10,163 bases of DNA. Origin: a virus (lineage: Duplodnaviria > Heunggongvirae > Uroviricota > Caudoviricetes). The position numbers and the translations under genes were made by a program. A model generated the notes under the pieces. That model made no database searches, was not told the DNA's origin, and saw only the letters and a program-made list of their open reading frames with translations. The stretch lies in the IMG/VR virus record IMGVR_UViG_2713896787_000009; one strand, 5' to 3'. Shown here one piece after another: positions 9,809-10,163 of this stretch; within the stretch, counting starts at the first letter, position 1; every line of letters begins with the position of its first letter.

Positions 9809-9899
9809 CTACACTTATTTTCCCGGCTCGCTTTTGCGGGCCTTTTTTGTATCTGCGCCACGCCCGGCGCATACCAACCACAGAGCCTTTCGGGGGGGG

Positions 9900-9949
9900 N
9901 NNNNNNNNNNNNNNNNNNNNNNNNNNNNNNNNNNNNNNNNNNNNNNNNN
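9900..9949. other. Assembly gap (50 N) after a G8 homopolymer
   Basis: Run of n characters; flanks are diverged copies of the same tRNA cluster. Confidence 0.95.
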
Positions 9950-10006
9950 GAGAGCGAGCGACTCATAATCGCCAGGTCGCTGGTTCAAATCCAGCAAGGG
10001 CCACCA
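9950..10006 (+). tRNA. Second-copy tRNA (CAU), 5' part lost in the gap
   Basis: Identical to 9588-9644 of copy 1 from the D-arm to CCA. Confidence 0.7.
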
Positions 10007-10013
10007 TCACATA

Positions 10014-10090
10014 CCGCCATTAGCTCATCAGGAAAGAGCGCCAGCTTTCGAAGCTGGTTGCGCGGAGTTCGGGTCCCCGAAGGCGGTCCA
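10014..10090 (+). tRNA. Second-copy middle tRNA: tRNA-Arg-like with anticodon UCG (loop TTTCGAA), argN-like, with non-canonical features
   Basis: Acceptor CCGCCAT/AAGGCGG (one A-A mismatch), D-stem GCTC/GAGC, anticodon stem CCAGC/GCTGG, T-loop TTCGGGT (G58), encoded CCA. Confidence 0.55.
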
Positions 10091-10103
10091 TTATCTGTAT
10101 CCT

Positions 10104-10163
10104 GCGTTGTTAGCTCAGCCGGACAGAGCAATTGCCTTCTAAGCAATCGGTCACTGGTTCGAA
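10104..10163 (+). tRNA. Second-copy tRNA-Arg (UCU), 3' end beyond window
   Basis: Matches 9735-9794 of copy 1 except one D-loop change (AGCCGGA vs AGCAGGA); truncated by the window edge. Confidence 0.8.

Follow-up and report, generated by a model that had tools for sequence, protein, structure and literature searches.

The phage-borne ileZ-argN-argO cluster and its occurrence in the window

In lambdoid and Stx phages, the tRNA genes directly follow the late promoter and terminator that Q controls, and the tRNAs of their cluster are thought to decode the rare codons AUA, CGA/CGG and AGA/AGG in late gene expression. Genuine tandem tRNA arrays are represented by the E. coli chromosomal multi-tRNA operons with repeated units. 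In Stx-converting and other lambdoid phages the cluster consists of ileZ, argN and argO, with the anticodons CAT, TCG and TCT, located in this order on one strand with short spacers, between Q and the late/lysis genes. The three genes are named in the records of Stx2a_WGPS8 (AP012540) and phage Lahn2 (AM072972). Two tRNA-Arg and one tRNA-Met were described in a paper on an Stx2 phage (PMC7946995), a content that we consider the same as that of the ileZ-argN-argO cluster. Our search of the literature found no paper that names ileZ, argN and argO together, and only general statements on the tRNAs of Stx phages.

The stretch of DNA analyzed here (the window; 10,163 nucleotides, IMG/VR record IMGVR_UViG_2713896787_000009) belongs to a draft scaffold of E. 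coli and most resembles strains of the O111 group, Shiga-toxin-producing or enteropathogenic. It carries the same three genes, with the same order, strand and short spacers, on both sides of a run of N. As in the phage clusters, the pre-gap copy is located between Q and the late/lysis genes, and the post-gap copy occupies the same position in the matching closed-genome loci. The post-gap piece is 94.4-94.8% identical to such phage records, and differs from the phage clusters in that it is incomplete and that its own Q/late-gene context is outside the window. The pre-gap copy differs from the known trio in its middle gene, which is degenerate; its ileZ and argO are intact.

The cluster is already known and represents textbook Stx/lambdoid phage content, without new biology. 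The relevance of the locus is rather one of data quality. The adjacency of the two copies across positions 9900-9949 is very probably an artefact of scaffolding or draft assembly, in which paralogous clusters of two prophages were placed side by side. The adjacency should not be trusted, and no inference should be drawn from the apparent "tandem" tRNA array.

The pre-gap cluster and its surroundings

The features of the pre-gap cluster, together with the upstream control region and the end of the contig, are as follows.

9357..9463, plus strand: promoter-like TTGCAA-17-TATATT at 9357-9385 and, further on, a GC-rich hairpin of 13 bp at 9434-9463; consensus scan
9569..9644, plus strand: ileZ, tRNA with CAT anticodon; ARAGORN, Rfam 72.5 bits, tRNA-Ile in RefSeq
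9646..9721, plus strand: degenerate argN remnant; Lys-ttt according to ARAGORN, best Rfam score 15.7 bits (E = 1.9)
9735..9809, plus strand: argO, tRNA-Arg(TCT); ARAGORN, Rfam 68.1 bits, RefSeq annotation
9825..9850, plus strand: terminator-like hairpin and T-run after argO; consensus scan
9892..9899, plus strand: truncated poly-G of eight G at the end of the pre-gap contig; sequence, compared with closed genomes

The gene for the Q antiterminator, annotated in identical closed-genome sequence, occupies positions 8678-9373, and the pre-gap ileZ begins at 9569. By analogy with phage lambda, the region at 9357-9463 would be the Q-controlled late promoter and terminator region, pR'/tR'; the consensus scan reported its hairpin (9434-9463) as a minus-strand site. 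A further promoter-like site was detected by the same scan at 9531-9559.

The middle element (9646-9721) scored below the Rfam gathering score for tRNA, and the matching closed-genome sequence carries no RefSeq annotation for it. It shows a 1-nt deletion in the D stem, C33 in the anticodon loop CCUUUAA and a G3.U70 pair, and this same variant was found in 11 other loci. The preliminary description had presented the post-gap copy as the diverged one. The relationship is in fact the reverse: the post-gap version equals the tRNA-Ile/Arg/Arg cluster of closed genomes and is a recognizable ileZ-argN-argO cluster, while the pre-gap middle element is a decayed remnant of argN.

Several of the changes in the element relative to argN are paired and preserve its stems. 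These include U-A to C-G at acceptor positions 7-66, and C-G to U-A at 27-43 and G-C to A-U at 30-40 in the anticodon stem. In addition, the A6.A67 mismatch is restored to A-U, and G3.U70 is the alanine identity pair. Judged from these features, the element most likely represents a pseudogene that diverged while still structured. A new functional tRNA was also considered, in view of the UUU anticodon, the G3.U70 pair and the paired changes in two stems. This candidate was rejected owing to C33, the broken D stem and the score of 15.7 Rfam bits; moreover, its relatives include forms without an anticodon arm.

The gap and the post-gap piece

Beyond the pre-gap contig the window contains the following features.

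9900..9949, no strand: run of 50 N, scaffold gap placeholder
9950..10006, plus strand: second ileZ, 3' 57 nt; the contig begins where the four compared cluster copies do not differ
10014..10090, plus strand: argN, tRNA-Arg(TCG), complete; ARAGORN, Rfam 42.9 bits
10104..10163, plus strand: second argO, first 60 nt, ended by the edge of the window; Rfam 40.9 bits, 3'-truncated

The N-run covers exactly 9900-9949, and the sole other N in the window is a single base at 6382. In the 214 bases past the gap (9950-10163) the three-tRNA unit resumes in the middle of ileZ, at tRNA position 20, such that the first 19 nt of the gene are absent; the last ~17 nt of the second argO are outside the window. 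In a pairwise alignment, the pre-gap and post-gap clusters were 87.3% identical over 213 nt (E ~1e-72), and the similarity of the two units is far above the chance level.

The details of the second copy recorded in the preliminary description were borne out by ARAGORN, Rfam and alignment of the two copies: the three-tRNA unit does restart after the 50-N gap. Its middle tRNA carries the anticodon loop UUUCGAA (UCG) versus CCUUUAA before the gap, the acceptor 3' strand AAGGCGG versus GUGGUGG, and the T-loop UUCGGGU (G58) versus UUCGAGU (A58). The spacers also differ: the first contains a TCACAT insertion of 6 nt, and the second is altered at two positions. The flanking argO is changed at 10120 and 10163. 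The post-gap argN is itself a weakened variant. It has two mismatches (A6.A67, and A.C in the T stem) as well as G58, and its score of 42.9 bits is lower than that of the best argN variants (53-58 bits).

Genomic position of the pre-gap contig

When compared with closed E. coli genomes, the pre-gap contig (1-9899) gave matches of 99.9%, most of the listed ones in O111. The differences from O111 RM9322 are all located within 120-425, with the exception of the N at 6382. In closed O111 genomes, positions 426-9899 correspond to the prophage at the ompW site, with the one N as the sole difference. They comprise the early-right region of this prophage, with a repressor/Cro pair, replication genes, paa, hokD/sok, DUF968, rusA and Q, followed by the tRNAs.

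Three minor features of this region may be mentioned. The sok antisense RNA (6136-6285; Rfam 103.9 bits) adjoins the hokD toxin gene, and the N at 6382 falls inside hokD. The paa gene (AcfC-family adhesin) is located at 5189-5947. Directly upstream of paa, at ~4490-5030, the matching closed-genome sequence contains a frameshifted fimbrial-protein pseudogene.

In RM9322 and E2865, the poly-G leads into AGCTTACGG..., after which come a TerB-family gene (a pseudogene in either genome), DUF3927 and a gene for an esterase. A second cluster was sought within 10 kb downstream in the two loci and none was found; the post-gap piece matched only the pre-gap cluster there, at 87%. Direct continuity from the flank to TerB was established by coordinates in six more closed genomes, and the flank-to-TerB junction was present in 790 genomes (at least 80% of the query).

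The exact 43-mer from the pre-gap end was present in eight independent contigs (six viral and two metagenome, with 0 genome contigs), and none of these contained an N gap. Six of the eight, four viral and the two metagenome contigs, continue across the poly-G (8-12 G) into the TerB sequence, and the two remaining viral contigs break or derail right at the poly-G. In one viral contig, IMGVR_UViG_2700989487_000002 (locus L010), the 108 nt after the poly-G (8312-8420) agree with none of the five closed-genome loci L001-L005, which suggests that a further assembly was derailed at the poly-G.

The continuation in closed genomes also bears on the nature of the N-run. The run could, in principle, be a one-for-one mask over contiguous normal sequence without any discontinuity, and the description of the genome-contig collection does mention some N-masked stretches. 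With 50 closed-genome bases masked, however, position 9950 onwards would be predicted to read TCGCTCCCGG..., whereas the observed sequence is GAGAGCGAGCG, in the middle of ileZ. What stands after the gap is thus not what follows in the closed genomes. A one-for-one mask was rejected for this reason, and its probability is close to negligible.

Genomic position of the post-gap piece

Another prophage of the same closed genomes carries a tRNA-Ile/Arg/Arg cluster to which the 214 nt past the gap are 100% identical. In E2865 the post-gap match is located at 1,188,688 and the pre-gap flank at 1,754,350; in RM9322 the corresponding positions are 1,112,200 and 1,706,300. The two flanks are thus 565-595 kb apart in these genomes. 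In all 15 genomes common to the best-25 lists of both flanks, the best places of the two flanks were at least 170 kb apart. The closed genomes compared are relatives of the source strain. Mapping of each flank to closed genomes had been proposed in the preliminary description as a check; the flanks fall, at 100%, in separate prophages of the same genomes. The apparent tandem duplication therefore very probably represents two paralogous clusters, rather than one locus.

Search for two units in one locus

A chimeric query, composed of the unique 3' flank and argN-specific sequence, was run against 5,426 closed genomes. The 396 "full-coverage" records obtained were single clusters in the order argN, argO and flank. 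The search joined the pieces of the query regardless of their order, as confirmed on H51 (locus L003), and the query is uninformative on tandem arrangement. Copies were therefore counted locus by locus instead. The 132 cluster-bearing loci were drawn from closed genomes, viral contigs and metagenome contigs, and at least 500 nt of downstream sequence were available in 122 of them and at least 2 kb in 77. None of the 132 contained a second copy of the cluster.

These counts bear directly on a true tandem duplication, in which two ileZ-argN-argO units would stand head to tail in one prophage, the second having diverged, with the N-run hiding ~50 nt, or some other length, of real junction. The two units are indeed alike in orientation and order, the gap between them is short, and a scaffolder did link them. 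Genuine tandem tRNA arrays have the same appearance of repeated units in one orientation with short spacers; they are, however, contiguous and reproducible within a lineage, while the array described here is interrupted by N and recurs in none of the loci examined. Moreover, the second unit is not a derivative of the first: its identity to the adjacent unit is 87%, compared to 100% with the cluster that lies ~0.57-0.59 Mb away in lineage-matched closed genomes. Every sequence that reads through the poly-G enters the TerB-family gene, and no flanking direct repeats that could drive unequal crossing-over were seen. A tandem duplication is consequently regarded as extremely unlikely. The preliminary description had left open both this explanation and a scaffold join between two lambdoid prophages; only the join is favored by the evidence, namely the distance between the flanks and the TerB continuation.

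Break points of the assembly

The left edge of the gap is formed by the poly-G, which is 18 G long in O111 RM9322, 13 in E2865 and 6 in Z1323CEC0014, and 8-12 in the read-through contigs. On the right, the gap ends within ileZ, where the sequence does not differ among the four cluster copies compared. Both edges, a G homopolymer and a multi-copy tRNA gene, are typical of assembly breaks. Other draft-derived contigs likewise begin or stop inside the tRNA cluster.

The G tract is located between the argO terminator and the TerB-family gene, ~85 nt upstream of the TerB ATG. Tract lengths of 6, 8, 9, 10, 11, 12, 13 and 18 were recorded among genomes and contigs (L001, L003, L004, L006-L013). This variation could reflect slipped-strand variability or sequencing error. 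As for the right edge, the post-gap contig starts 56 nt before the first copy-specific base, which is consistent with k = 57; this is a remark on consistency rather than evidence.

The opposite end of the contig also changes prophage.

1..552, plus strand: leftmost part of the contig; matches, at 100% identity, a third prophage located beside potC (1,350,025 in RM9322)

The last 127 nt of this segment (426-552) are common to the potC-side and ompW prophages. The exact mosaic of the window, with a left end from the potC prophage joined to the ompW prophage, was found in none of the closed genomes searched. The three parts of the 10-kb window therefore map to three prophages of one closed genome. 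The left end probably arose as a chimera induced by a repeat, the alternative being a strain-specific recombinant, and positions 1-552 call for caution in use. A left end from a third prophage fits an assembly that handles prophage repeats poorly.

The possibility of a strain-specific recombinant extends to the gap itself. A real rearrangement in the source strain, by recombination, inversion or formation of a hybrid of two prophages, would place the cluster and late region of the second prophage beside the poly-G flank of the ompW prophage. Lambdoid prophages are mosaic, and in other strains a normal argN cluster precedes the poly-G/TerB flank (L003); the left end of the window, itself a two-prophage mosaic, could likewise have arisen by real recombination. 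An exchange within the shared tRNA sequence would, however, generate one hybrid cluster, as in L003, and not two in series. The break point coincides exactly with a homopolymer and is within a repeat, as is typical of assembly breaks, and the arrangement is absent from the listed best-matching closed genomes (99.9% identical) where checked. We thus consider such a rearrangement very unlikely. That the source strain carries a second ileZ-argN-argO unit after the poly-G of the ompW prophage, gained from a sister prophage, is highly improbable. If true, it would mean that a usable Arg-UCG tRNA had been restored beside a decayed one, and that the tRNA cluster had been duplicated by exchange between prophages.

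A scaffold join remains the preferred explanation and would have come about as follows. Genomes of this kind contain many related lambdoid prophages, each with the arrangement Q, ileZ-argN-argO and late genes. The main contig (~426-9899) corresponds to the early-right region of the ompW prophage and breaks off in the poly-G, shortly after the tRNA cluster of that prophage. Beyond the N-run, the second piece begins in the shared ileZ sequence and bears the cluster variant of a different prophage. A scaffolder or a contig-ordering step would then have set the two pieces side by side, presumably on the basis of read pairs in the near-identical ileZ/argO segments or of reference-guided ordering. 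On this explanation, the sequence leaving the poly-G would continue as AGCTTACGGAGTGG... in the source strain.

The features of the locus are shared with repeat-induced breaks and mis-joins in short-read assemblies of multi-prophage E. coli. They include a round number of N, a homopolymer at one edge and a repeat at the other, flanks that fall in different prophages of closed relatives, and a switch of prophage at the opposite end of the contig. The breaking of other draft contigs at the poly-G or in the tRNA cluster is a further feature in common. The exact cause of the join is, in this case, an inference.

Variability of argN among prophage loci

The argN-bearing interval from ileZ to argO occurs as 60 distinct sequences in ~130 loci. 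Eight variant classes were compared with Rfam. The ileZ gene scored 72.5 bits in all of them and argO 68-71 bits, whereas argN reached 53-58 bits in the best variants and fell below the threshold in four of the eight classes, including that of the pre-gap copy in the window. The unstable member of the trio is argN, whose forms in the eight classes range from good tRNAs to unrecognizable remnants. Some forms of the interval have a rewritten or deleted anticodon arm.

Of eight prophage loci scanned, seven (L012, L023, L105, L107, L110, L114 and L131) showed a match to the STnc100 sRNA (100-175 bits) downstream of the cluster. In L012 the match is located at 14236-14408, ~690 nt past the poly-G, a position that would be beyond the end of the contig in the window. 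Locus L023 additionally carries a match to AgvB.
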